Positions 291-61,339 of a DNA stretch of 64,000 nt are shown piece after piece. The stretch is taken from the IMG/VR virus record IMGVR_UViG_3300043013_000026, positions 32,001-96,000 of that record, one strand, 5' to 3'. Numbering within the stretch: position 1 is the first letter of the stretch; each line of letters opens with the position of its first letter. Position numbers and translations under genes: made by a program. The notes under the pieces were generated by a model that saw nothing but the letters and a program-made list of their open reading frames with translations, searched no databases and had not been told where the DNA came from. This DNA is from a virus. Taxonomy: Duplodnaviria; Caudoviricetes.

Positions 291-460
291 TTGTAAGAAA
301 CAACATTGAACTGACTGCCAGATATTATGGCACAAAAGCCATAACAGCGGTTTATCGCGGTGCTCATTTGATATGGGAGGCCGTGAATAGCTGTTTTGGC
401 AGTGGTTACTGGATTAAAGAAAAAGCCTGGAGCAACACCGACTCTTGGCGTATCAACTAA
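287..460 (+). CDS. small hypothetical protein (57 aa, MIVRNNIELTARYYG...WRIN), not in the ORF track
   Basis: Manual translation; ATG overlaps the previous stop (ATGA); fills the gap before the giant gene. Confidence 0.6.
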   Translation: MIVRNNIELTARYYGTKAITAVYRGAHLIWEAVNSCFGSGYWIKEKAWSNTDSWRIN

Positions 461-471
461 TAAATACCAAT

Positions 472-3400
472 ATGGCAAAAAGAACTATTATTGACAGCGC
501 CATTCCTTCGATTGACACTCCTTGGGATGACGGAAAAAACGCCTATAGTGGTAAAGCGGTGGAGGACTTCATCAAGAGTCAGCTATCCTCTAAGATTGGC
601 TATGCGGTCATTCCACAGGAGAAGGACACTGATGGATACTACCATATATGGGGCTTCGCTTCCCAGTCCGCTTATAACGACTATTTGACTGACACCGTAG
701 GAGGTGCGTCGCTGCGTTTGTTGAATGTTGCCATCCCTCTGCTTGAAGAGCAGGGCGGCGTGAGCAACATTGTTACTTTGACTCGTAATTCGGCTGCATC
801 TTTAGTTACGAGTAAGGCGGTGGCAAGCGTAAATGTATCTTATCTCTGGCAACAGTACAACCCTGTCACAAAGGAAACTACTGACCAAGATGAAGATGCT
901 ACTATCGTTGTGTCATGTCGTACTCAAAACTCAAGTGGCACATGGGGTTCATGGGACTCCAGTAAGTCGTTCTCGGTCAATATTCAGTCCGGGCAGACTA
1001 AGACAATCGACCTTAGCTCTCTCCTGACTTCTGATGCAACTTATCAGGTGCGTTTGGTAGCCACAGGTGAAACAAGCGGAATTTCTGCGAGCCCTGTAAC
1101 AATGACTATCGTGTATTCTAACGTTTCTGCTACGTATGACGGTTCAATCGCGACTGCATACAAGGGCGGTAGTATTCAGCTCCCGTTCCGTATTACAGGT
1201 AGCGTTCAGAAGCAGCTCCGTATCAAAATCAATGGATACACAAAGAATTACACGTTGGGTACGACAACGTACACCGATAACACGTATGGCGCAGCGGTTA
1301 CTCAAACCGAGTTTGGGTTGGCTCGTGGTGCAGTGAAGGCAGAAGCATGGATTGCTTTTGGCGACAACTATTCTGCTGAGACAGAGCACCAAGAGTTCCA
1401 GTTTATCTACATTCCTGAAGGCGATACCGTTACAACGCCTATCTTGGCAGTAACGGATGTCGTAAGCGAGTTTGAAAACTGGACACGTACTACTATCTTC
1501 CGCTATGCTATCTACAATCCGCAGAAAGATTCGACAACAGTACGCCTGACCCTTCAGGACCGCGACACCGGTCAAATCTATATTCAAAAGGATCAGGAGT
1601 GCGTTAATGGGACAGCCTATGAGTTTGATGAGAACTTTGCAATGGAGTATGAAGGCGATGACCAGCCTACTACTATCAATGCACAGGTTACATTCACGAA
1701 CACTTCAGGCGTAACCTATGGTAACAGTATCAACTTCACAGTTGACAACTCGGAAAATTTCGCTCCGACAAAAGGTGCAAATGTAATTGTATCAGCTGAG
1801 AAGAAGACAATCACTATTGACGACGTTTCTTATGAGCTGAACGATCTCTTGAGCGATACTGAAGACACCAATTCAGGATGGAGCAGCAACGCCGAAACCG
1901 ATGCTACCGGTGCGTCTGTCAATGTCCCGGTCCTCAGTATTGCCGCCGGCAACCGTGTGACAATCCCTTATGAGCTTTTCGATGATAACACCGGTCGTAA
2001 TGACGGTGGCGTTGAAGGCTCTATTACAATGGAGTTTGACATCAAGGTTAAGAACATTGTAGGTGATGCAGAAATCATCGACGCTTCAGCGGATTTCAAC
2101 GGTGGCTACACAGGTTTGAAGTTTTATCCGACTCGTGCCGTTTGCCTGAGCCGAAATAACTACACTGAGGAATTGGCTGACGTTAACTTCCAAGAAGAAG
2201 TACGTGAGCATATCGCTATCAATATCATCCGTAACCTCCGTGGTGAAGGCATGAACCTTGTGCGTATCTATGTCAATGGTAAATCGAACCGCTCGTTCAT
2301 TTATACTGACGAGGATTACTTTACGCCTATCGGTGAAAAGGGCGCACAGAACATTATTATCGGTTCTGATGAGGCTGATGTTGATGTTTACGGCATCCGC
2401 ATTTACAAAGGTCAGCAGCTTGGTTCTACCCAAATTCAGAACGATTACATGGCCGGTATGCCTACGATTGAAGACAAGAAACTGTTCAAGCGTTACAATT
2501 CAATCTATAATGGCTCGGAGATTGGTTATGACCTTTGTAATGCAATGGGTCTTAACACTATTCTCCGTAAAATTCCTGAAGGCGGCCACTATCCCTCACG
2601 CGAAAATCAAAGCAAGCAAACCAACGTTACCATAGATGTTCGCATTTATAATGAGCGTGGTAATGCAGATAGCCTCGATATGAAGCACTCAGGAACTTTT
2701 GTTGGCATGACTGACAAAGGTCAAGGTACTTCAGCGAAAGGCTACTATTGGTGGAATATCACGGATGGTTTTGAGGATGATGTTGAGATTGAGCTTGCCG
2801 ACTACAATGCTTCAGACCCGACTCATTATACTTCCGATGGCAAGTACTACCGTAAGAAATCATACTTCAATTCTCTGGACGGCACAAGCCAAGTCTATGC
2901 CAGCAAGTACGAATTGGAAGATGGTCGTGGTGGCATTACAAAGCTCGTTGGTAAAGCCAACTACGCTTCTCCTATGCAGAGCCATAAGCTCGGTGCAATT
3001 TGGATGTATGATGAGCTTTGGCAAACTCTTGTCAACGATGGCTCTGATGACCGTCCTGTTCTGTCAAATACTCACGTTACCTGTTATGAGAAACCGTTCT
3101 TGTGCTTCTATCAGATAGGCAACGGTAATCCTATATTCTGTGGCTTCCAAACTTGGGGTAGCGGTAAAGGCGATAAGAAAACCTTTGGCTACGACAAGAA
3201 AAAGAGTCCGGGCTACTTGTGTATCTCAGGCGCTGATAATGGTGCAATCGCAGCACTTTTCCAGATGCCCTGGAATGTTTCTCAAAACGCTGACGGTGCA
3301 TGGGAAGGCAACATTTATGCTAAGAGTGTAACCATTAACACCGGTGACGTGAAGAACGGTTACTGCTATAAGAGCGGCACCAGCGACACATTGTCATTTG

Positions 3401-6400
3401 AGGTTGAAATCGGTAACAAATACGATGGCGGCGAAACTGACAAAGGCGTTCTCCGTATTGAGGACGAGGCGAAGGGCGAATCAGAGACTACTCTCTTTAC
3501 AACATTCGCTGAGTTCGCCAACTTTTTGTTCGCTTGCTCGCCGTTATTGAAGCCATACGCCGGCACTGAGTCTCAACTTATTGCTGACAGTGCAAATCTT
3601 ACACGTGACCATCAGTATTGGCTGTTCAACTCAGGTTCTGACCGTTACAACGTTTACTACTACAATCCTGCTACTTCTAAATTTGAGAAAGTAAGTAAAA
3701 TTCCGACTGCATGGGGTAGCGATGGTAGAGCATACGCTTATGGTAGTCCGAAACTTACTGAGCAGTTGGCCGGCGTAACCATTACGGTTGATACGGTTAA
3801 TGGCTCTCAGAGCATGACACTGGAAGACGCATTGAGTACTCTCGGTACGTCTGACATGAATGTGGTTAATGATTGCTTCTCAAAGGCGAGAGTGGCTTAT
3901 TTTGCCAACCATGCTTCAGCCTACATCGACACCAAAGACGTTATCTTCCACCAGTGTCAAATCAAGTTGCTTGGTGGTACCGATAACCGTACCAAGAACA
4001 CTTACTACTGCATTGACCCGGCTATTGACTTGTTGGTACGTTTGAAACAGGATGACTTGGATACTATCTTGAAGACCGATAACCAAGGTCGTCAAACCAA
4101 GCCTTACTATGTACTTGAACATACTAAGGATGCAAGTGGCAGCAACTACTGGAACGGTGAAAACAACGTTCTCTACACGTTGATCGAGCGTGCATATCCT
4201 GAACGTATGCGCACAATGATGCGTAACATGTTCGCTCAGATGGCACAGATTGCAGGTAGCGTTGAAAACTACTTCCAACAACGTTTCTACTGGGTTCAAG
4301 AGTACTTCCCTGCTGTTGCATATAACGAAACCAGCCGCCTTCTCTACGAGGTTGCTCAGGTTAAGTTGATGAATGGCTTGATTGATGTGAGCCAAGACCC
4401 TATCACTCAGGCAGTAGGCGACCAGCTGGAGTGCGAAAAGCAATTTATGAACCAGCGTCTTCCGATGTTGATGTCATGGTGCGAGTATGAAACCGGTGGC
4501 GATGGTACAGTCAGCTTCCGTTCAGTAAACAGTGTCAGCGGTCAATCACCGACATACGACATTGAATACACTGCATATCAATACATTTATCCGAAGCTTG
4601 CAGTCGGCGGTTACATCGCTACTCTGTATGCCAAGATTGATGGCGAATGGGTAAGCCAAGGTAGCGACCCGTATCTGTGTGCTCCCGGCGAAACGGTACG
4701 ACTGGTTATCGCCAGCACCGACTCTAATACCCAGTTTACACTGAGATGGATGCACTACGCTAAGAGCATTGGCAATCTTGGTACATTGCCTTGCGGTGAA
4801 GACGGTAGCGTCACTATCACAGGTAAGCGTTTGCGTAAACTGGAATGTTGGTCTGAAGACGGTGTGCCTATTGAGTTCCACCCGAAAGGCTTGGTAATCT
4901 CAAATTGCCGTAACTTGGAGGAAGTGAACTTGACTAACGCTTCGGCTTTCTCAGGAACATTCTCAGCCGACCTTCCACGTTTAAGAAAGCTCCTCCTCAG
5001 TGGCTCTGCTTACACCAGTGCGTCGCTTCCTAAGACTTCTACGTTGACTGAGGTCGAATTGCCGAGTACCGTCAATGCTATTACGGTTGACGGTCAGCCT
5101 AACCTTGCCAGTCTGACGATTGATGGTTTGTCAAGTTTGCGTACCCTCCGTATCGTTGGCAAGCATAAAATTCAGAAACAGACGCAATCAATCGTTCAGC
5201 TCGCTTACTCTCAGGCTGCAAACGCAAACAGCGTTCAGATTGACAATGTAAGCTGGACCGGCGTATCGGTTGACGTGATGATGTGGTTGCAGAAGTTGAA
5301 AGCTTCTTTGACCGGAACTATCAGCTTGACCGGAACTGTGACTTTTGCTAATAAGGTTGCGCTGGTTGGCATATACGGAAACATCGACTCTACTTCAAAT
5401 TCGTTGTATCTCAGCTATACCAAGCGTAGTATTAACAGTATAACTGTCAATGGCTTAACGTATATTTCAGAAACCGGAACATACCAATATGAAGTCGTTT
5501 GTTCGCCTTCAACCGGTAACGACGTGGCTATCAAGGATGGTAAGCTGGATGTTCTCTGGGAAATCGATGATGCCGCTAAAGCTTATGCTTCTTTCACTGA
5601 CTCTGTTAACGGAGTTTTGAAAGTCACTAAGCTGGATGAAAGCGGCACTGACACTCGATATGTTGCTCAGTGTACCGTGACTAAGACGGGTGGCACAACC
5701 CTTGTATCAGAGTTCCAAGTAGGCTTCTATCGCCGAATCCCGAAGATTGGCGACTTCGCTTATGCGGATGGCACTTTTGATGACCAATATCTGAAAGATA
5801 AGACGCTGGTTGGTATCATCTACAAAATTGATGAGATGTGGCAAGGTGATGGCGATGCTGAACCGACTATTTACACCGGTTATAACAAACCTACCGAAAC
5901 ATACAAAGCAAGTCACAAACTTGTTGGTTATCAGCTTAGTATCGACTGCAAAGAAAATCTTCCTTGCAAGAGCACTGATGGCTTCATCAATACCGGTAGC
6001 ACTGTTTGGGGTCTTTATCCGTCCAACGACTCGAATGGTCATACTGCAATTCAGAATGAGATTATCGCCGCAACCGGTATCTCAAGTATCTTTGACCTTC
6101 CGGGCATCAGTAATATCAGTAGCCGAGGTCTGTCTGGCGGTACAAGTAATGACTATGTGACAACCGGCAACTACATCGACACCAATGAAGACGACGGTTT
6201 CAAGGATTACAGTACCGGTTCTGGCTGTGTGACCGACTGGAGTGGCAAGAATAAGACGCTTGCAATCGTGAAACACGCAACTCAAATCATCTCAGCTTAC
6301 CTGCTGTCTGAAGCTAATGAGTCAGTTGCAACTAACTATGATGACGATGACGGCGTAAATCACGAGTTCGCTGAAGTTCCGACTACCGTTGAGGAAATGG

Positions 6401-7029
6401 CAAACGCTATGGAGATACTTTACAAGGCTAACAATAACCTGACGAAGTATCAACAGTTCCTTTACCCTGCCGGCTTTGGATGTTATCTCTATCAGCCTAC
6501 CGTTAAGGACGGCGAGGAGCTTGACCCTCAGTATGCTTCGACAAACTGGTATCTTCCCGCTTGTGGTGAAGAATATCGTCAGTATAGCTTCTTTGCTAAA
6601 TCAAGAACAGGCGGCATGGGTGATACTTATTCTGTTGGTCAGAATACATCTCCAGCTGCAAGTGTCATTGACAAAATGATTACTGACGCATTGGCTTCAG
6701 AGGAGTCAAATGAAATAAATTTGAATGTTTCTCCCTCTCATGTGGAGTACAGAAACTATACTGGTATAGAGATGGCTGCAATTAACCGCTATTTCCATAG
6801 CCTTGTAGAGGCTGAGAAACCGATTTATTCGATGGCTCTTTGGCGTGCTTTGGTGGCAAATGGTTCCGCACCGTTCACCCAGCACAGCACTGGCTACCAT
6901 TGGTCATCCACCGAGTACTCATCCAACTACTCGTGGTTCGTCTATTTCGGCTATGGTTATAGCTACTACTACAGCAAGTGCTTCACTTTCGTTGTTCGCC
7001 CTGCTGTAGCCTATCAGTTTTTTCTTTAA
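472..7029 (+). CDS. giant tail fibre / receptor-binding-like protein, DGR target 1 (LamG-like, CotH-kinase-like, LRR-like segments, C-terminal CLec-type variable domain)
   Basis: ~2185-aa ORF (likely ATG 472); C-terminal WYLPA...HWSSTE...VVRPAVA motif; 3' end matches the TR except at adenines. Confidence 0.85.
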   Translation: MAKRTIIDSAIPSIDTPWDDGKNAYSGKAVEDFIKSQLSSKIGYAVIPQEKDTDGYYHIWGFASQSAYNDYLTDTVGGASLRLLNVAIPLLEEQGGVSNIVTLTRNSAASLVTSKAVASVNVSYLWQQYNPVTKETTDQDEDATIVVSCRTQNSSGTWGSWDSSKSFSVNIQSGQTKTIDLSSLLTSDATYQVRLVATGETSGISASPVTMTIVYSNVSATYDGSIATAYKGGSIQLPFRITGSVQKQLRIKINGYTKNYTLGTTTYTDNTYGAAVTQTEFGLARGAVKAEAWIAFGDNYSAETEHQEFQFIYIPEGDTVTTPILAVTDVVSEFENWTRTTIFRYAIYNPQKDSTTVRLTLQDRDTGQIYIQKDQECVNGTAYEFDENFAMEYEGDDQPTTINAQVTFTNTSGVTYGNSINFTVDNSENFAPTKGANVIVSAEKKTITIDDVSYELNDLLSDTEDTNSGWSSNAETDATGASVNVPVLSIAAGNRVTIPYELFDDNTGRNDGGVEGSITMEFDIKVKNIVGDAEIIDASADFNGGYTGLKFYPTRAVCLSRNNYTEELADVNFQEEVREHIAINIIRNLRGEGMNLVRIYVNGKSNRSFIYTDEDYFTPIGEKGAQNIIIGSDEADVDVYGIRIYKGQQLGSTQIQNDYMAGMPTIEDKKLFKRYNSIYNGSEIGYDLCNAMGLNTILRKIPEGGHYPSRENQSKQTNVTIDVRIYNERGNADSLDMKHSGTFVGMTDKGQGTSAKGYYWWNITDGFEDDVEIELADYNASDPTHYTSDGKYYRKKSYFNSLDGTSQVYASKYELEDGRGGITKLVGKANYASPMQSHKLGAIWMYDELWQTLVNDGSDDRPVLSNTHVTCYEKPFLCFYQIGNGNPIFCGFQTWGSGKGDKKTFGYDKKKSPGYLCISGADNGAIAALFQMPWNVSQNADGAWEGNIYAKSVTINTGDVKNGYCYKSGTSDTLSFEVEIGNKYDGGETDKGVLRIEDEAKGESETTLFTTFAEFANFLFACSPLLKPYAGTESQLIADSANLTRDHQYWLFNSGSDRYNVYYYNPATSKFEKVSKIPTAWGSDGRAYAYGSPKLTEQLAGVTITVDTVNGSQSMTLEDALSTLGTSDMNVVNDCFSKARVAYFANHASAYIDTKDVIFHQCQIKLLGGTDNRTKNTYYCIDPAIDLLVRLKQDDLDTILKTDNQGRQTKPYYVLEHTKDASGSNYWNGENNVLYTLIERAYPERMRTMMRNMFAQMAQIAGSVENYFQQRFYWVQEYFPAVAYNETSRLLYEVAQVKLMNGLIDVSQDPITQAVGDQLECEKQFMNQRLPMLMSWCEYETGGDGTVSFRSVNSVSGQSPTYDIEYTAYQYIYPKLAVGGYIATLYAKIDGEWVSQGSDPYLCAPGETVRLVIASTDSNTQFTLRWMHYAKSIGNLGTLPCGEDGSVTITGKRLRKLECWSEDGVPIEFHPKGLVISNCRNLEEVNLTNASAFSGTFSADLPRLRKLLLSGSAYTSASLPKTSTLTEVELPSTVNAITVDGQPNLASLTIDGLSSLRTLRIVGKHKIQKQTQSIVQLAYSQAANANSVQIDNVSWTGVSVDVMMWLQKLKASLTGTISLTGTVTFANKVALVGIYGNIDSTSNSLYLSYTKRSINSITVNGLTYISETGTYQYEVVCSPSTGNDVAIKDGKLDVLWEIDDAAKAYASFTDSVNGVLKVTKLDESGTDTRYVAQCTVTKTGGTTLVSEFQVGFYRRIPKIGDFAYADGTFDDQYLKDKTLVGIIYKIDEMWQGDGDAEPTIYTGYNKPTETYKASHKLVGYQLSIDCKENLPCKSTDGFINTGSTVWGLYPSNDSNGHTAIQNEIIAATGISSIFDLPGISNISSRGLSGGTSNDYVTTGNYIDTNEDDGFKDYSTGSGCVTDWSGKNKTLAIVKHATQIISAYLLSEANESVATNYDDDDGVNHEFAEVPTTVEEMANAMEILYKANNNLTKYQQFLYPAGFGCYLYQPTVKDGEELDPQYASTNWYLPACGEEYRQYSFFAKSRTGGMGDTYSVGQNTSPAASVIDKMITDALASEESNEINLNVSPSHVEYRNYTGIEMAAINRYFHSLVEAEKPIYSMALWRALVANGSAPFTQHSTGYHWSSTEYSSNYSWFVYFGYGYSYYYSKCFTFVVRPAVAYQFFL
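6883..7010 (+). repeat. DGR variable repeat VR1
   Basis: Ungapped match to 7715-7842; 18 mismatches, all opposite TR adenines. Confidence 0.97.
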
Positions 7030-7061
7030 TCTTCCTGGCGAGTTGCCTCTGGCAACTCGCC
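7023..7061 (+). promoter_or_regulatory. DGR target-recognition element downstream of VR1: TCTTTAATCTTCCTG plus hairpin GGCGAGTTGCC-TCT-GGCAACTCGCC
   Basis: Perfect 11-bp stem (7037-7061); the same 15-mer plus a hairpin follows VR2. Confidence 0.75.
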
Positions 7062-7089: not shown

Positions 7090-7605
7090 ATGGAAATCCA
7101 AGGCAAACAAATGTCTTTTGAAGAGGTATGCGACCTGTTTGATACTGGCGTACCCACCGAACCCGGAGAGCAAGTTATTCTCTCTAACGATGAAATTAAC
7201 CGCGCTCGCCGCAACAAAAGAGCAGCACAAAAGAAGGCTGCTGGCTTTCAAAACACGCCCATTTACAGGTCGTTACATTCTTCAATGAGACTGCTTATAG
7301 AAATTGTACAACTTATGCCGAGGAAGACTGTCAAGATTACTGACATGCTTCTTCAAAACTATGCTGAGATGATCCGATGGACCGCTTCGGCATACAATCA
7401 CCGTGATCCGCTACTTAAACAAAATGCTATCGAAGAATCTATTTCTTTAATGAGCGTGATAAAGATCATGCTCAACTGTATGTCCGGTCTCGTTAGCGAT
7501 AAGAAGCACAAGCAGCTGACTGCATCATTTGATGCCGTGACGCGCCAACTCGTAGCATGGCGCAGCTCATTAGAACAAAGCGAGGGTCCCGATGATGAAG
7601 CCTGA
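7090..7605 (+). CDS. avd: DGR accessory variability determinant (Avd-like four-helix bundle)
   Basis: Lies between VR and TR/RT; TPIY...MPRK...RQLVAW pattern typical of Avd; helical and basic. Confidence 0.8.
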   Translation: MEIQGKQMSFEEVCDLFDTGVPTEPGEQVILSNDEINRARRNKRAAQKKAAGFQNTPIYRSLHSSMRLLIEIVQLMPRKTVKITDMLLQNYAEMIRWTASAYNHRDPLLKQNAIEESISLMSVIKIMLNCMSGLVSDKKHKQLTASFDAVTRQLVAWRSSLEQSEGPDDEA

Positions 7606-9073
7606 TAAACGCTACATCGGGAGAGAGCTTAGAGCTTTGCTCGGATATGGGCGGTTGACTCCGTGGCATGGTATTAACTATGTCCGGAGTTACGAAGCTG
7701 CACAACCGCATATAAACAGCACTGGCAACCATTGGTCATCCACCGAGAACTCATCCAACAACTCGTGGAACGTCAATTTCGGCAATGGTAATAGCAACAA
7801 CAACAACAAGTACAACACTAACGTTGTTCGCCCTGCTGTAGCTCATCCGACAAAGGCTTGGCTTCAACTTAGGCAGACTCTCCAATTAGCCTATGAGGAT
7901 TGTTGTCGAGGTAAGACTTCCAGTCAACAATGTCAAGACTATATCCCTATCGCTAACGAGGACCTGGATATACTTACTACCGAACTTATAGAAGGAACAT
8001 ACAAGCCCACTACATCAACATGCTTTCTCGTCAGATTTCCGAAACTTAGAGAGGTATTTGCAGCCGCTTTCCGTGACCGTATCATACATCACTGGATATG
8101 TATGCGATTAGTGCCGCATTTTGAGGAACTGAACGAGAGCATAGGAAACGTTACGCATAACTGCCGTGTTGGATTTGGAACACGTTCAGCGGTTAACAGC
8201 GTATTCAACGCAATCAAAGAAGTAACTTACAGCTATGGTCAGGAAGCCTATCTTTTTAGAGGTGACTTGGTTGGCTTCTTCATGTCCTTACCTCAGCGCC
8301 GTATGTGCGACCAGCTTATTGAGTTTACACAGGCGCAATATCATGGCGATTTCAAGAACTTGCTCATTTGGCTCATAGAAGTAGTTGTTATGCACCGACC
8401 CGAATTGAATTGTATGTTCAATTCCAAGCCCGCTGATTGGGCTGGGTTGGCGCATAATAAATCTCTATTCCGTTCCGGCAAGGGACGAGGTGCGCCTATT
8501 GGAAATCTAACCACCCAGCTATTTGCCAATTTCTACATGACGGACTTCGATGCTTTTATGATGGATTGTGTAAAGAAACTGGAAGCTCAAGGCATCCGTT
8601 GTTCATTCCAGCGTTTTGTAGATGACTTTATCATTGTTTGCAACAACAAGAAAGCATTGAAGTGGATGATTAAAGCGGCTGAAATCAAAATCAAAGCAAT
8701 GGAGCTGACGATGCACAAGGACAAGCGTTACATCCAACCTACGAGCAAAGGAGTGATGTTTGTCGGCTCATACCTGAAGAACGGTCGCATATATCTCAGT
8801 AATCGCACACTTGGCCGTTTCCGTGATAAGGTTATCGGCATTGAGCGTTACATGAAAGTTTCGGAACGAGAAATCACCTCAGCCGACCTCGATCATATAC
8901 TTGCTACTCTCAATTCATATCTTGGCTTTTGTAAGGACCGCAAAACATATCGTTTGCGCCGACGTATTATGAAGCCGCTTATCTATTCGCATGAGTTTAA
9001 GCGTTACTTCAAAATCTCAAGATATGTCACAAAAGTTACTCTGAAAAAGAAATGGAAAACTATTATTAGATAG
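7592..9073 (+). CDS. DGR reverse transcriptase
   Basis: PKLREVFAAAFRDRIIHH, GDLVGFFMS, GAPIGNLTTQLFAN (DGR PIGNLTSQ-like), RFVDDF, FVGSY. Confidence 0.95.
   Translation: MMKPDKRYIGRELRALLGYGRLTPWHGINYVRSYEAAQPHINSTGNHWSSTENSSNNSWNVNFGNGNSNNNNKYNTNVVRPAVAHPTKAWLQLRQTLQLAYEDCCRGKTSSQQCQDYIPIANEDLDILTTELIEGTYKPTTSTCFLVRFPKLREVFAAAFRDRIIHHWICMRLVPHFEELNESIGNVTHNCRVGFGTRSAVNSVFNAIKEVTYSYGQEAYLFRGDLVGFFMSLPQRRMCDQLIEFTQAQYHGDFKNLLIWLIEVVVMHRPELNCMFNSKPADWAGLAHNKSLFRSGKGRGAPIGNLTTQLFANFYMTDFDAFMMDCVKKLEAQGIRCSFQRFVDDFIIVCNNKKALKWMIKAAEIKIKAMELTMHKDKRYIQPTSKGVMFVGSYLKNGRIYLSNRTLGRFRDKVIGIERYMKVSEREITSADLDHILATLNSYLGFCKDRKTYRLRRRIMKPLIYSHEFKRYFKISRYVTKVTLKKKWKTIIR
7715..7842 (+). ncRNA. DGR template repeat (TR)
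   Basis: AAC/AAT-rich copy of VR1 and VR2 that retains A at all variable positions. Confidence 0.95.
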
Positions 9074-56717: not shown

Positions 56718-57194
56718 TTATTTGTTGTTATTAATTTGTTTATCCTTGTTGTTTTCAATCCATTTCTTCAGGATGATAAGAGATGGATGTGTACTTGATT
56801 GCCAGAACCATAATCCGCTGGCAAAACTATTCCAATCTAACGCGCTTTGAATTAGTTGGCAGAGTATGAAAAGCTCCAACTCTACCTGCGCTTCCTCACG
56901 ACGAATACCGTATAGCATATCCTCGTCAGCAAGCTTCTTCTCTGGGAGGGCTCGGAAATAGCTGCGAGTCTTCTGCTCACTGCGCTGAGAAGGTACGCTG
57001 TGATAGAAGCGTTCATACAACCTCTCAATCTCTTTCAGAGGTTCATTAGACGGAGCGCATCCGAGATTGCCCTCATACTTTCCGTCTTTGATGACATATC
57101 TGCCATCAACTCTCAGGCTTCGATGCTCGAAACTAACTGAGAAGCGAGCGCCTTTAGCGACGCGACCAAGTGTTTCCTTATAGATGTTACTCAT
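56718..57194 (-). CDS. hypothetical protein immediately downstream of the hairpin array
   Basis: Likely start MSNIY, 31 nt after the last array unit. Confidence 0.7.
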   Translation of the reverse strand: MSNIYKETLGRVAKGARFSVSFEHRSLRVDGRYVIKDGKYEGNLGCAPSNEPLKEIERLYERFYHSVPSQRSEQKTRSYFRALPEKKLADEDMLYGIRREEAQVELELFILCQLIQSALDWNSFASGLWFWQSSTHPSLIILKKWIENNKDKQINNNK

Positions 57195-57225
57195 ATAAAT
57201 TAAAATTGTGCAACTCAAGTCAGTG

Positions 57226-58344
57226 ACGTATAGCTTTATTCAAACTGATCGGGTCAGGTTTGTTGCCTCCTGAGCTTGGACTGTGTGTCTCAAGCTCGGA
57301 GGTCATACAAGTCCTGAGTAAGTGAATTTTTGACTCCTTGTTGCGAAATGTTACGTTACATATCCACGTCCTCATCAGCGTGGCGCATTACTGTAATCAC
57401 CATGATTAAGGAGCTGGTGATTGAAGGCGGGCGCCTGCAAGTAGGCAAGGCGCCCGCCTCTCTTTGAACCAGCTACGATGAAGTGGCTGACCTCGGACGA
57501 AACCTTTGCGCTTAGTAATGTATAGCTATCAAACTCACGATGCGTTGCTTTACAGGGGCGATTTGAAACAGTATTGGCTTCCTGGGCACCGGCGTGAAGC
57601 GGGTGACAACCGGAAGCACGCCGGTTCCCAGCGATGATTAAATACTGTTCACAATAAATTTGAGTTTCTTTAGCTACGGGCTGACGCATTTCAGTGATGA
57701 TGTGGATGGCGTTGTATGTATCTGCATCAAGGCGATAATAAAGAGTAAGAGCCTTGTACGCGACGATCGAGGTGTTGATCGTCGCGAACAGGTTAACGTC
57801 CTCTTTAATTAAAGTTGCCATCATCATTCATCGACCGCATACACGGTTGTTCAAAATTGTTAGCTGAGTGATTATCCGTATGTTGCTATATCACGTTGAT
57901 CCGATTGCGGATATGTGACGTTGAGACTGTCCAGCCTGGACGTCGAAAACGTCATCCCAGCCGCATAAGGTGAATGTGACAATCGTTCAACTAACTGCTG
58001 CATACCCAGCTTATTGATTGGCGTATAGAGTGCCATGTTTCTGTACCGTTTTGATGTGAGTCATCAGTGGATACGGGTACCTGGAAGGCTTGATATTGGC
58101 ATGTAAGGTACCCGTATAAACCGATGAATCCTGAAATATTCTATTCTTCCAATCAAACCCGCATGTCCGGGTTTTCCAGTAGAAGTCATATCGCATTGTA
58201 TGTTTCTATATCAATTTGATGTAAACTCGAATTGCCAGATCGGTGAAGCACTGGGACAGATAGTCAGCCGTCCCAGGGCTCTCACCGATCTGGTTAAGAC
58301 TCGATGTTACTGAATTGTGCAATCATTCTTCTACTCCTTCATAC
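57226..58344 (-). ncRNA. array of seven structured ~160-bp units (putative RT template RNAs)
   Basis: Seven long hairpins (57254-57317, 57412-57474, 57567-57649, 57740-57806, 57906-57965, 58061-58127, 58227-58304), each next to a degenerate motif; units closed by covarying end pairs; strand inferred from flanking genes. Confidence 0.75.
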
Positions 58345-58358
58345 TAAGGTTTCGGGAA

Positions 58359-59621
58359 TTACAACGACTCTACCAAAGTTAAGTACGCTTCACGATTAGT
58401 AACCATAGCGTTCTGCATACAACTGATAGTGAGATAGCCCTCGATTTCTTGCGGAGTTTTCTCGCGGTTAGCCTTCACATTGCGACCGAGGCCACGCTGG
58501 ATACAACCGCCAGACTTGCTTGCTACATAGCCGAGACCGCCAATCTTCGTCTTACCGGTCATCACTGCCCTCAAGCAATCCATCACAAACTTATCCAGTT
58601 CGTGAATATCACTTTTGACGTTGCATATCGGTAAAATCTGAGTAGCCCAACTAAACTCACCATCGCCTTTGTAGAGATAACGGTTCACTGCATTGACAGC
58701 CTTACGTAGAGTTACGTCAGGCTTGCGAATTGTCCGGGATAAAATTTCCTTCTGGAAGGTTTTGAGACGAGTGCTACTGAGTGATATGTCAGAGCCTTTG
58801 ATTGAATATCCCAGAAATTTAAACCAGTGAGTCGGTGTGAGATATTCAACTTTCTTCGGATTTAGTGACATGTTCATTTGTTCAAGCTCAGCCCTCAAAA
58901 TGAACATTGCCTCCTCGTAATCCGGTCCGACAAACAGCATGTCGTCGGAGTAGCGTATATACTCACCGTTCAGCTCGTCTATCCTTGAATCAATGTGGTA
59001 GAGGAGCACGTCAGCGAGCCAGGAAGCAACGGCACAACCCTGCTTTAGTGATTGGTAAGCCTCATGCAGTTCTCCGTCCGGCGAGAAGTACCAATCACTG
59101 TTGTAATACTTTCTCAGAACGTCGATTAACGCAGAATGTCCATATTTGTTTTCAACCTTATGGAACGCTTGCTCAATGAAGCAGAGAGGAACGCTGTCGA
59201 AGTATTTGCTGAGGTCCGACTTCCAGCCGATAACCTCATCCTTCGCTTTGCAAATCTCTTTGGAAATCTCCTTCACAATTTTTCCACAGCCCATACCTTT
59301 TTGATAAGAGCGGCATTTCGGATGAACCATCTCAGGCATCAACTCAAACAGCAGGTCGTTAGCGATACTGAGAAGTACGCGGTCAATCGGCTCGTTGATA
59401 TAGACGGTTCGGAAATCGCCGTTGTCCTTGGGGATTTGAGCGGTGTGCGGCGGCGCTATTTGATAGCGACCATCGCGAATAGCCTCATACATCTCAAGCC
59501 TCACTTCAGGCTTAGTGAGCTGGTAGAGGTCTCGTTTCGGGATGTGCTTTCCAACGCCTTTCTCGATGGCATATTCCCAGCGAGGAAGCTCGAAAAACTT
59601 TTCTAATATTATGTCGCTCAT
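58359..59621 (-). CDS. stand-alone reverse transcriptase (non-DGR, unclassified)
   Basis: IPKDNGDFRTV, DLSKYFDSV, LKQGCAVASWLADV, YIRYSDD, LNPKK, FKFLGY. Confidence 0.93.
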   Translation of the reverse strand: MSDIILEKFFELPRWEYAIEKGVGKHIPKRDLYQLTKPEVRLEMYEAIRDGRYQIAPPHTAQIPKDNGDFRTVYINEPIDRVLLSIANDLLFELMPEMVHPKCRSYQKGMGCGKIVKEISKEICKAKDEVIGWKSDLSKYFDSVPLCFIEQAFHKVENKYGHSALIDVLRKYYNSDWYFSPDGELHEAYQSLKQGCAVASWLADVLLYHIDSRIDELNGEYIRYSDDMLFVGPDYEEAMFILRAELEQMNMSLNPKKVEYLTPTHWFKFLGYSIKGSDISLSSTRLKTFQKEILSRTIRKPDVTLRKAVNAVNRYLYKGDGEFSWATQILPICNVKSDIHELDKFVMDCLRAVMTGKTKIGGLGYVASKSGGCIQRGLGRNVKANREKTPQEIEGYLTISCMQNAMVTNREAYLTLVESL

Positions 59622-59636
59622 ATTAATACATTCTAA

Positions 59637-59858
59637 TTAAAACCATCGAAGAACTTTTGGTGTTTCCCAGTAAAAGCTGCAACCTGGACAAGCTCTCTGA
59701 ATAATTGAAAGAACTTTGTCGCGGATCGAGCTCTGGAAAATTCGTAGTTGATTGCGCTTCAAGGTAAAATCCTTGCCACGCTTCATTCCATTAAGAGTGA
59801 GCACCGCTTGAATAGCCTTGTGACTTTCTACGGGCTGATTTTCGTTTATTGATGTCAT
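59637..59858 (-). CDS. hypothetical protein
   Basis: Likely start MTSIN; directly upstream of the RT. Confidence 0.5.
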   Translation of the reverse strand: MTSINENQPVESHKAIQAVLTLNGMKRGKDFTLKRNQLRIFQSSIRDKVLSIIQRACPGCSFYWETPKVLRWF

Positions 59859-60138
59859 TAATTTTCCCTGATTTGAAAAGAAGTTGTTTACGCTGTCGGT
59901 ACTCTCTCTTCTTCTCAGCCCAGTAAGCAGGAGACCGCTTCTTAGGTATGCTCCTAACTGGAGGATGAGCAATGTTTTGAATCGTCCATTTGCTACAATG
60001 AAACATTGCAGCCAGTTGACGATAGCTGTATCCCTCGGAAATCAATATCTTGATTGCGCTTACCGAGTCTTGGCTGAGCTTTCTTCGTTTATCATATCGA
60101 GTGCCGGCAATTAATATTTTCTCACTTTTGTATGGCAT
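59791..60138 (-). CDS. HTH DNA-binding protein
   Basis: GYSYRQLAAMFHCSKWTIQNI helix-turn-helix. Confidence 0.7.
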   Translation of the reverse strand: MPYKSEKILIAGTRYDKRRKLSQDSVSAIKILISEGYSYRQLAAMFHCSKWTIQNIAHPPVRSIPKKRSPAYWAEKKREYRQRKQLLFKSGKINDINKRKSARRKSQGYSSGAHS

Positions 60139-60498
60139 TTATGAGTTCGGTTTGTTCCCCATCAAGTCCACTGCCAGACCATTGGGGCATCTCTCGTCAA
60201 ACCAATGCCAAATGCTATATCGGTCAGTTCCTTTCTCGAAGAATAGAAAATCTTCTTCAATACATTCATCCTTGTCAATCGGAACATCTTCCAGCAACTC
60301 CCACATTTCAGGCAACGTCATCAGCTTAACGTGACTGTTACATGAATTGCAGTAATTGTTGTCTTCATCGTAGAAAGAGCCTACATACTCCTCTATTTCT
60401 CCGGTTGCATCGTTAACCCAAGCCAATGAACTTACATTACTTGAGCCGCATTGAGGGCAGTAACGAGTAAATAAGAATTTGTCCATTATCATTTGCAT
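60139..60498 (-). CDS. hypothetical protein with Zn ribbon
   Basis: CPQC...CNSC; FEKGTDRYSIWHWFDE. Confidence 0.65.
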   Translation of the reverse strand: MQMIMDKFLFTRYCPQCGSSNVSSLAWVNDATGEIEEYVGSFYDEDNNYCNSCNSHVKLMTLPEMWELLEDVPIDKDECIEEDFLFFEKGTDRYSIWHWFDERCPNGLAVDLMGNKPNS

Positions 60499-60503
60499 TT
60501 AAC

Positions 60504-60541
60504 GCCGGGGCAGAAAACTGCCCCGGCAGGAAGATTAAAGA
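60504..60541 (-). promoter_or_regulatory. DGR target-recognition element downstream of VR2: TCTTTAATCTTCCTG plus hairpin GCCGGGGCAG-TTTT-CTGCCCCGGC
   Basis: Same 15-mer and a similarly placed hairpin as after VR1. Confidence 0.75.
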
Positions 60542-61222
60542 TTAAACCTTACATGCTACAGCAGGGCGAACAACGTAAGTGTTGTACTTGTTGTAGTAGC
60601 CGCCGCTATAACCATTGCCGAAATTGACGTACCACGAGTTGTAGGATGAGTTCTCGGTGGATGACCAATGGTATTCCTTGCGAAGAGGAGAACCACCTAC
60701 CGCTTCCAGTGCGGCATTGACAGCTTTGACATTTAGGAGAATGAGATATAATTGGGCGAGGGATGGGATGTATTGATTAGGCTGGAGATCAATCTCTGGA
60801 TTGAGCGCTTCACCGTAATCAGCGGTGTTATCTTCGCCTCTCCAGTCTGAGATAGCATCGAAGAAATCGCTGTGGAAGAACTCAGGCGTACCACATTCTT
60901 CAACGGTAGTAAGAGCTACTTCTTCACCATCGCAAGCATCGTGAAGCGCAACGGTAGCGATTTTGTCACCCATCCTGACAGCCACTCCGACCACAGAATC
61001 CTTAATAGCTTCCACGTTTTCAAGGACCGTCAGTGAGCCATTGTTGAGTACGTAATAAACACCGTCAGTGTTGTTGAGCTGAGAGGGAGCCACTTGAGAA
61101 ACGGGTGTCTTACCATTGCCTATAATAAAATCAAAGCACTCTTTTGCTTTGGCGACATCATAATTGAGTCGTTCTACGAGTGTAGCCCTGAAAGACTGCA
61201 CCGGATTAAGTTTTATTTCCAT
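60542..61222 (-). CDS. DGR target 2 (DUF1566/CLec-like domain protein)
   Basis: YIPSLAQL...YHWSSTE...VVRPAVA; 3' end matches the TR. Confidence 0.9.
   Translation of the reverse strand: MEIKLNPVQSFRATLVERLNYDVAKAKECFDFIIGNGKTPVSQVAPSQLNNTDGVYYVLNNGSLTVLENVEAIKDSVVGVAVRMGDKIATVALHDACDGEEVALTTVEECGTPEFFHSDFFDAISDWRGEDNTADYGEALNPEIDLQPNQYIPSLAQLYLILLNVKAVNAALEAVGGSPLRKEYHWSSTENSSYNSWYVNFGNGYSGGYYNKYNTYVVRPAVACKV
60555..60673 (-). repeat. DGR variable repeat VR2
   Basis: Matches the TR except at adenines, plus one extra NNC codon. Confidence 0.93.
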
Positions 61223-61278: not shown

Positions 61279-61308
61279 TGAAAAGATGTACACTTTAACA
61301 CGGGATTA

Positions 61309-61339
61309 TAAAAAAGACCGAGCGTTTCCACTCGGTCTT
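61309..61339 (-). terminator. intrinsic terminator
   Basis: AAGACCGAG...CTCGGTCTT stem with U-tract on the minus strand. Confidence 0.65.

Follow-up and report, generated by a model that had tools for sequence, protein, structure and literature searches.

A small, remote protein with a predicted C-type-lectin fold as probable second target of the single DGR of a Bacteroides-type gut phage

The stretch of DNA analysed here, called the window, comprises 64,000 nucleotides and corresponds to bases 32001-96000 of a complete 109,334-bp phage genome in IMG/VR that carries direct terminal repeats; the source virus is a Bacteroides-type gut phage. On the minus strand of the window, an ORF at 60542..61222 encodes a protein of 226 aa, here named target 2, located among small genes of unassigned function, 3' of an intergenic region and in the orientation opposite to that of the long plus-strand block that carries the DGR cassette and its tail-module target. 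A repeat, VR2 (60555..60673, minus strand), encodes the C-terminal ~40 residues of target 2 and has at its 3' end a 20-nt GC-rich, IMH-like block, GTTGTTCGCCCTGCTGTAGC (60555..60574, minus strand). The stop codon of the gene is followed by a 14-nt motif, CTTTAATCTTCCTG (60527..60540, minus strand), and a perfect, GC-rich hairpin of 10-11 bp is found about 27 nt after VR2 (60503..60528, minus strand). Downstream of target 2, in the same orientation, come the genes of a Zn-ribbon protein (60139-60498) and of a protein matching the HTH_38 profile (59791-60138), and thereafter, 0.9 kb downstream of target 2, that of a UG27 reverse transcriptase (58359-59621, minus strand), matched over its full length by PADLOC RT_UG27 (E 4.8e-221). 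These genes, within 58359..60498, are context and lie outside the DGR. The presence of a UG27 RT beside target 2 had not been mentioned in the earlier note on this DNA; UG27 is a class-2 UG/Abi enzyme, reported in Bacteroidetes gut phages together with a non-coding RNA (PMC9226505). An Rfam search of the region 56.5-61.5 kb gave no match.

The DGR cassette is found at 6.9-9.1 kb on the plus strand, in the order VR1, Avd-like gene and TR/RT. VR1 (6884..7010, plus strand) encodes the C-terminus of a tail-module protein of 2194 aa (ORF 445-7029). The accessory gene that follows (7090..7605, plus strand, 171 aa) matched PHROG 3206, 'Avd protein of DGR', with an E value of 1.9e-4 and Pfam bAvd with an E value of 0.007, two weak profile matches that suggest its assignment as Avd. 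The reverse transcriptase ORF (7592..9073, plus strand, 493 aa) was matched by PHROG 1423 (E 8.5e-50) and RVT_1 (E 4.6e-8), with the motifs IGNLTTQ and FVDD being visible, and its context and motif point to membership of the DGR clade. Both the RT and the Avd-like gene are intact. The TR (7716..7842, plus strand), being the adenine-rich copy of the repeat and the sole TR in the genome, lies within the 5' part of the RT ORF, and the part of it shared with VR2 spans 7727-7842. The first ~85 N-terminal codons of the RT are TR-encoded, and no in-frame ATG was found within the ~50 codons translated past the TR, to nucleotide 8000.

Searching the whole 109,334-bp genome for copies of the repeat gave three, namely TR, VR1 and VR2, and one TR therefore serves two VRs. 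All mismatches of VR1 to the TR over 127 nt were found at adenines (17/17). In the alignment of the VR2 core (60673..60555, minus strand) with TR positions 7727-7842, nine of nine substitutions fell on TR adenines and there were no non-adenine mismatches, an outcome having a probability by chance of ~0.336^9 = 5e-5, with 39 adenines in the 116-nt core. VR2 is separated from the TR by 52.7 kb on the map and by ~56.5 kb the other way round, on opposite strands, which is about as remote as the genome permits. The earlier note had described a minus-strand match to the TR at 60555-60673 having substitutions just at TR adenines, and its coordinates proved exact; the codon changes that it quoted, AAC to TAC or GGC and AAT to TAT, are all present in VR2. 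Its further claims of a remote target about 53 kb from the TR on the opposite strand, of one TR shared by the 2194-aa tail-module protein and the 226-aa protein, and of the latter showing no relationship to the tail target other than in the VR agreed with our results as well, the last of them at the level of sequence, as the BLASTP similarity between the two proteins was confined to residues 149-223 of target 2, that is the VR and a few residues before it. A detail absent from that note is that VR2 has one codon more than the TR in the (AAC)4 tract (five versus four), reading GGC GGC TAC TAC AAC where the TR has four AAC.

As for the nature of target 2, an AF2 model built from an alignment of 82 diverse family members reached a pLDDT of 93 and superseded an earlier AlphaFold model from 85 close homologues, which had given a pLDDT of 53 (about 31 in the VR region). 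In this model the protein is predicted to consist of a helical hairpin (residues ~7-33), a low-confidence linker (~36-50) and a DUF1566-type C-type-lectin fold (~49-226). The best fold match was the C-terminal domain of the Bacteroides ovatus fimbrial tip protein BACOVA_04982 (4EPS_A), with a Z score of 15.0 and an rmsd of 2.6 A over 170 residues, followed by the C-terminal domain of Legionella Lcl (PDB 8Q4E, Z 10.6). The DGR targets TvpA (Z 5.9) and Mtd (Z 5.5) were more distant, and canonical CTLDs matched at a Z score of about 5. The same two adhesins were found when the family profile was searched against the PDB (1.1e-8 for 4EPS and 1.1e-5 for Lcl). Among predicted viral structures, the best matches were the C-terminal ~190 residues of large tail-fibre proteins (TM 0.57-0.63), together with a 228-aa DUF1566 protein of 'uncultured phage cr10_1'. 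The Pfam profile PF07603 Lcl_C (DUF1566) matched target 2 itself below its gathering threshold (19.9 versus 34.9 bits, E 9.5e-4, residues 182-220), and 48 of the 82 family members matched that profile at E <= 1e-3. The fold and profile-to-PDB matches speak for a distant relationship, and the label of a DUF1566-like fold is thus justified; formal Pfam membership of the target 2 sequence is not. The identity that the earlier note had guessed, a CLec/DUF1566-like protein, was in this way borne out by fold match and profile search, and the structure prediction that it had proposed gave a fold of this type with confidence. No signal peptide was apparent by eye, and no recognisable tail-attachment domain was seen in the model, which predicts just the 30-residue helical hairpin at the N-terminus. 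The family is large and mostly viral, with 739 clusters at 50% identity reaching E <= 0.001, and most of its members are of 210-250 aa.

Whether VR2 is still being rewritten was evaluated through comparison with related phages, collected by an IMG/VR scan for the invariant 20-nt 3' block and complemented with the GenBank record of BS-TP1, a cultured Bacteroides salyersiae phage of 111.7 kb. Seven genomes of ~100-kb phages, including that of BS-TP1, were found to have TR, VR1 and VR2 in the same layout. With cores of 109-119 nt, all of the 91 mismatches between VR2 and TR in these genomes fell on TR adenines, with no exception. The TRs of the seven genomes differ mutually at 15 columns within the VR2 core, and at all 15 of these VR2 has the base of its own TR wherever that base is not A. 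A private AAC-to-AAT codon in the TRs of two genomes is thus mirrored in their own VR2, and a three-codon tract in the TR of another genome is mirrored in both its VR2 and its VR1, while the remainder of the target 2 protein is just 56-60% identical between these clades. Such a concerted pattern, as seen in these sequences, would be explained only by repeated copying from the TR. It also bears upon ordinary gene conversion between VR1 and VR2, which might maintain their similarity without any TR cDNA and for which the 3' block and downstream motif common to both VRs could be cited. The two VRs differ, however, at adenine-derived positions while both equal the TR at every non-adenine position, VR1-specific non-adenine slips of some genomes were not copied into VR2, and the TR is the sole copy with unsubstituted adenines, for which reasons we give gene conversion practically no credence.

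A closer comparison was offered by a relative present as two contigs in sample 3300043105, which we take to belong to one phage and of which the second provided the TR. On either side, 9-10 kb of its flanking sequence are 97.2-97.3% identical to the window, and no difference is seen between the two TRs, yet VR1 differs at 22 positions, 21 of them at adenines, and VR2 at 19, of which 17 are adenine or tract sites and two lie at the 5' edge of the homology. At that edge, VR2 of the window has the TR-derived ...TACCAT... in place of the ...TGGTAT... found in relatives and in most of the family, so that a homing event in the lineage of the window probably extended slightly further upstream than usual. 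Variation confined to the expected positions was also clear at the level of protein. In one cluster at 90% identity from a sister lineage (97 members, of which 15 were read), all 15 proteins had unique tips, with residues 1-187 being essentially identical and the tips varying just at AAY-coded positions. In the alignment of 85 family proteins entropy was likewise high only at AAY-coded positions, these being flanked by invariant W, S, F, G and VRPAVA scaffold residues.

These results are hard to reconcile with VR2 being a frozen duplicate, a relic of past homing or duplication that the DGR no longer rewrites, a reading that the earlier note would have drawn from a lack of A-specific variation at VR2 across reads or related phages. 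It is true that VR2 of the window has just nine substitutions to the 17 of VR1, that it carries an indel relative to the TR, and that the recorded VR2 alleles of the lineage to which the window belongs number just two, both recurring unchanged on 6-8 contigs each. The relative having an identical TR and flanks of 97% identity nevertheless shows 19 differences in VR2, a number close to that in VR1, and VR2 follows the private non-adenine changes of its own TR in the seven genomes, and because of these two findings the notion of a frozen duplicate fails. The imported, TR-derived ACCAT at the 5' edge, where relatives have GGTAT, is moreover a sign of lineage-specific homing, and the same tract shows indels also in BS-TP1, there in VR1, and in two proteins out of 15 near-identical ones. 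We consequently hold it very improbable that VR2 is frozen. The recurrence of each allele on 6-8 contigs indicates instead that homing is episodic and not constant, and from comparisons of this kind we infer that VR2 is subject to homing in the window's own genome too. As for the searches, a protein-pattern scan of IMG/VR gave two loci, the DNA pattern on the invariant 20-nt block being more productive. Megablast of the region against GenBank phages gave no match, as did a metagenome scan using the lineage-specific 3' flank of VR2, and a second metagenome scan returned just VR1/TR loci of other phages, with no further VR2 alleles of the window's lineage.

The length of the (AAC)n tract was found to vary within the family, with three, four or five codons in 4, 71 and 10 of the 85 proteins, respectively. 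In one genome TR, VR1 and VR2 all have three codons, and among 14 pairs the tract of the VR departed from that of its TR in three, these being VR2 of the window, VR2 of its close relative and VR1 of BS-TP1. The near-identical proteins of the sister lineage had an extra residue in 2 of 15 cases. This variation is most simply explained by slippage recurring on the (AAC)n template. VR2 of the window and VR2 of the relative both have five codons while both TRs have four, and yet the two VRs differ from each other both 5' and 3' of the tract; a plain replacement over the full length by a four-codon cDNA does not account for this combination.

With regards to sequence elements that might distinguish the recipients from the template, the 20-nt block GTTGTTCGCCCTGCTGTAGC is identical in TR, VR1 and VR2 and invariant in all of the related genomes, and 3' of it the three sequences diverge. 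The 14-nt motif CTTTAATCTTCCTG found after the stop codon of target 2 occurs also after VR1, at 7024-7037, and is absent after the TR. The hairpin following VR2 has a folding energy of -16.2 kcal/mol (z -5.6), and an 11-bp GC hairpin lies 26 nt after VR1 (7037..7061, plus strand, -14.9 kcal/mol, z -6.4), while DNA folding against shuffled sequences gave no comparable fold after the TR (z -0.65). Neither of the two hairpins is followed by a T-run, and neither was called as a terminator. The hairpin of BS-TP1 differs from that of the window by a compensatory G/C swap, and in VR-bearing homologues with protein identities of 43% and 31% the VR is followed by a similar motif, along with a hairpin whose sequence differs. 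In BPP-1, the IMH and a downstream hairpin mark the recipient. By analogy, the hairpin after VR2 is a candidate DGR target-recognition hairpin, and block, motif and hairpin together may mark the VRs as recipients.

We accordingly consider VR2, with a probability of roughly 0.9, to be a genuine, naturally diversified second target of the single DGR of this phage. By analogy with BPP-1, the avd-TR-RT cassette (7.1-9.1 kb) would make an adenine-mutagenised cDNA of the TR, which would act in trans and replace either the adjacent VR1 or the remote VR2. A VR would be marked as recipient by the 20-nt 3' block, the ~14-nt motif and the GC hairpin ~27 nt downstream, the TR being devoid of these elements past its end. 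The outcome would be randomisation of ~13 AAY-coded positions on the predicted ligand-binding face of the lectin domain of target 2, with slippage on (AAC)n adding a length variation of plus or minus one codon, and two scaffolds not otherwise related would thereby draw the same type of binding-site library from one template. The features shared with BPP-1 are the adenine-specific transfer from TR to VR, a VR at the C-terminus of a C-type-lectin fold, a GC-rich 3' element common to TR and VR, a hairpin downstream of the VR only, and a match of the Mtd structure to the lectin part of target 2 (Z 5.5). In contrast, the single, adjacent target of BPP-1 is a proven tail-fibre receptor-binding protein, whereas target 2 is remote, small and encoded outside the structural module, and the present clade has its own hairpin spacing (~27 nt) and the 14-nt motif common to both VRs. 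A GC skew sign change near 46-47 kb was considered as a possible sign of a lagging-strand preference in homing; that idea was rejected, since the skew changes where gene orientation flips in the ORF map, and replication direction is therefore inseparable from coding-strand bias.

The packing of target 2 together with the UG27 RT gene might suggest that this second RT serves VR2, or that target 2 is a working part of the UG27 system. The order target 2, Zn-ribbon gene, (HTH gene) and UG27 RT is indeed tight, and it is kept in at least eight further related loci, with identities of target 2 down to 43%. However, no TR-like copy is found near the UG27 RT gene, there being just the three repeat copies in the genome, and the UG27 RT and the DGR RT are unrelated beyond the common RT core. 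A target-2-like gene does not accompany the UG27 RT everywhere, as the phage contig MT835776 has a UG27 RT (64%) with a downstream partner of 166 aa and no target 2 within 5 kb upstream. Conversely, homologues of target 2 exist in Bacuni_F1 and in two other phages where no UG27 RT is close by, the homologues being located next to DNA polymerase A (Bacuni_F1), near an integrase, and next to SMC-like and RecT genes, and in Bacuni_F1 the homologue is the one that bears a VR. A role of the UG27 RT in the diversification of VR2 is in our view largely refuted and scarcely to be expected. Because of MT835776, the homologues elsewhere and the lack of a TR-like copy near the UG27 gene, we do not think that target 2 and the UG27 RT are functionally tied, and the two appear unrelated. 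From the text of the paper by Mestre et al., target 2 could not be identified as their 'cluster 337/346/336'.

That DGRs may have several targets was known, as the earlier note had stated, and an arrangement of one TR with a near and a remote target is already published for related phages, so that target 2 joins a known kind. The Bacteroides uniformis phages Bacuni_F1, F2 and F4 have two DGR targets, one of which is remote (PMC8143477); this remote target, locus Bacuni_F1_00026, is described as a 'putative fimbrial tip protein, DUF1566' (PMC8143477). The remote target of Bacuni_F1 has ~225 aa, is 34% identical to target 2 over residues 5-197 and carries its VR at the C-terminus, with the repeat copies and TR ~13 kb away in the genome. 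The likeness thus comprises a homologous remote target of ~225 aa with a C-terminal VR and a larger second target beside the RT. It differs in that the Bacuni_F1 target is found among replication genes, beside DNA polymerase A, whereas the neighbours here are the Zn-ribbon, HTH and UG27 RT genes, and in that target and TR are here 53 kb apart in a 109-kb genome, on opposite strands, with a near target of 2194 aa. The Quimbyvirus ('Quimbyviridae'), also a Bacteroides gut phage with a two-target DGR, places its first target behind the tail-fibre genes, the second being encoded away from the structural module and on the other strand (Benler et al. 2021, PMC8008677). That second target was read as non-structural by its authors, who proposed a role in phage-host conflict (PMC8008677). 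This arrangement is analogous to ours and is here set beside target 2 by description alone; the genes neighbouring the remote target there, in contrast, encode methyltransferases, a nuclease and a tRNA ligase, and the RT is divided among three reading frames. As to fold, target 2 shares the DUF1566/Lcl_C type with 4EPS (Z 15.0) and Lcl (8Q4E, Z 10.6), but these are secreted, surface-anchored bacterial adhesins, whereas target 2 is a phage protein lacking a signal peptide and having another N-terminal part.

The role of such small remote targets had been called unclear in the earlier note, a fair statement, as our own judgement stands close to even between two readings. Target 2 could be a virion-attached accessory adhesin or a second receptor-binding protein, a proposition that concerns its role and leaves its diversification by the DGR as described. 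The adhesin-like fold favours such a role, as the closest structural relatives of the model are adhesin tips and tail-fibre ends (4EPS at Z 15, Lcl at Z 10.6 and the C-terminal ~190 residues of tail-fibre proteins at TM 0.57-0.63, the lectin part alone being similar to such fibre ends); a binding-site template is common to target 2 and the tail-module protein, and the lack of a signal peptide is compatible with virion assembly. On the other hand, a long distance separates the gene from the structural module, from which it also differs in strand, here as well as in three other phage contexts, and the model has no recognisable tail-attachment domain but just the helical hairpin of 30 residues. 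Between Bacuni F1 and F2, 15 SNPs were reported in the secondary VR, yet the two phages have the same host (PMC8143477), and that VR, which in our reading is the remote one, has thus varied with host unchanged among the strains tested (PMC8143477), a finding that favours a non-virion role. So does the placement of family members in early, replication and accessory modules, where in four distinct phage contexts their neighbours are genes of replication or recombination or encode an integrase or an RT. A role in the virion is accordingly plausible, at somewhat less than an even chance. Our own slight lean, at little better than even odds, is towards an early or accessory protein acting inside the infected cell, and target 2 would then be a soluble variable binder devoid of a signal peptide.

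A more specific proposal, which we put forward tentatively and deem rather unlikely in its entirety, is that target 2 is a hypervariable intracellular binder and not a virion protein, expressed along with the early or accessory genes and possibly co-transcribed with the Zn-ribbon, HTH and UG27 RT genes, with the DGR evolving its recognition of a variable factor of the host or of a rival element. If this were true, recognition in defence, counter-defence or superinfection control would evolve in parallel with receptor recognition, and the ~225-aa DUF1566 proteins encoded in replication or early modules of phages would form a general class of 'phage antibody'. Since the family is large and mostly viral, the role of target 2, whichever it may be, should be common in gut phages. 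The locus also offers a clean natural case of one TR serving two scaffolds that are unrelated and lie across the 109-kb genome from each other, for which the related genomes provide evidence that both VRs are kept up to date. The motif and hairpin after both VRs, together with the one-codon slippage in (AAC)n, give leads on how remote targets may be recognised by the cDNA.

BS-TP1 is cultured and has the same layout, so the role of the small target should be directly testable in that phage. In the available part of the BS-TP1 paper just a protein of ~2000 aa (gp27) is named among the modelled DGR targets (PMC12694917), and a second target seems not to be pointed out in that part of the text. 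In the GenBank record of BS-TP1, gp76, which is its homologue of target 2, is annotated as 'DUF1566 domain-containing protein' and the UG27 RT is labelled 'tail protein'.

The AAC tract is a point at which the variable repeat of target 2 (VR2) and the template repeat (TR) differ in length, with five codons in VR2 (60594-60608, minus strand) versus (AAC)4 in the TR (7795-7806, plus strand). The same was seen in the 97% relative, the VR2 tract of which likewise has five codons and its TR four, and the VR2 sequences of the two phages carry differences on either side of the tract despite this equal five-codon length. Within the target-2 family as a whole, the tract is polymorphic, being 3, 4 or 5 codons long, and in BS-TP1, the cultured Bacteroides phage relative, the tract of VR1 is one codon longer than that of its own TR.

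The TR itself lies within the 5' end (7592-7846, plus strand) of the reading frame of the DGR reverse transcriptase (RT), and its lectin-like coding sequence explains why this ORF scores against Lcl_C. As the approximately 50 codons translated after the TR (to nt 8000) contain no in-frame ATG, the RT would bear a TR-encoded lectin-like peptide if translated from 7592.

With regard to target 2, the sequence GACCGAGTGGAAACGCTCGGTC TTTTTT, in which a run of T comes after a GC hairpin, is found at about 61300-61336 on the minus strand, just past the upstream 195-aa gene. On the basis of this sequence feature, target 2 may thus be the first gene of a separate transcription unit, together with the Zn-ribbon and HTH genes and perhaps that of the UG27 RT. 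The latter, a class 2 UG/Abi enzyme and the second RT of the window, is encoded 0.9 kb downstream of target 2 (58359-59621, minus strand; full-length match, PADLOC E 4.8e-221). It is directly followed by a stretch of approximately 1.1 kb (57210-58358), partly covered by a 150-aa ORF (57375-57827) and a 166-aa ORF (56718-57218), the latter being a conserved partner that accompanies the UG27 RT in every related locus reaching far enough downstream.

In the GenBank record of BS-TP1 (PQ571274.1, L001), the UG27 RT is labelled 'tail protein' (7488-8750) and the second DGR target, gp76, merely a DUF1566 protein (6001-6672); in the accessible part of the BS-TP1 paper, gp27 is the only DGR target of the phage shown as modelled (PMC12694917). 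The target-2 scaffold seems also to exist without DGR control, since two distant members of the family have tips that do not appear A-diversified, one adjoining SMC-like and RecT genes (L044, 232-891) and the other, annotated as DUF3988, in the large human-gut phage csAssE-Sib of 151 kb (L040, 4677-5513).

In contig WFLX010028142.1 (L047; about 1280-2260), which comes from a metagenome and belongs to a related phage, the ambiguous base N stands at adenine positions of both VR1 and the TR-like copy, and the VR1 tract has an irregular insertion; this is probably a consensus assembled from a population in which the TR/VR sequences were polymorphic or mixed. The exact target-2 allele of the window (P0271, 60542-61222) is on record on seven contigs, the longest of which measures 218,412 bp. 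As this is nearly double the genome length of 109,334 bp, the assembly appears to be of the concatemer type.
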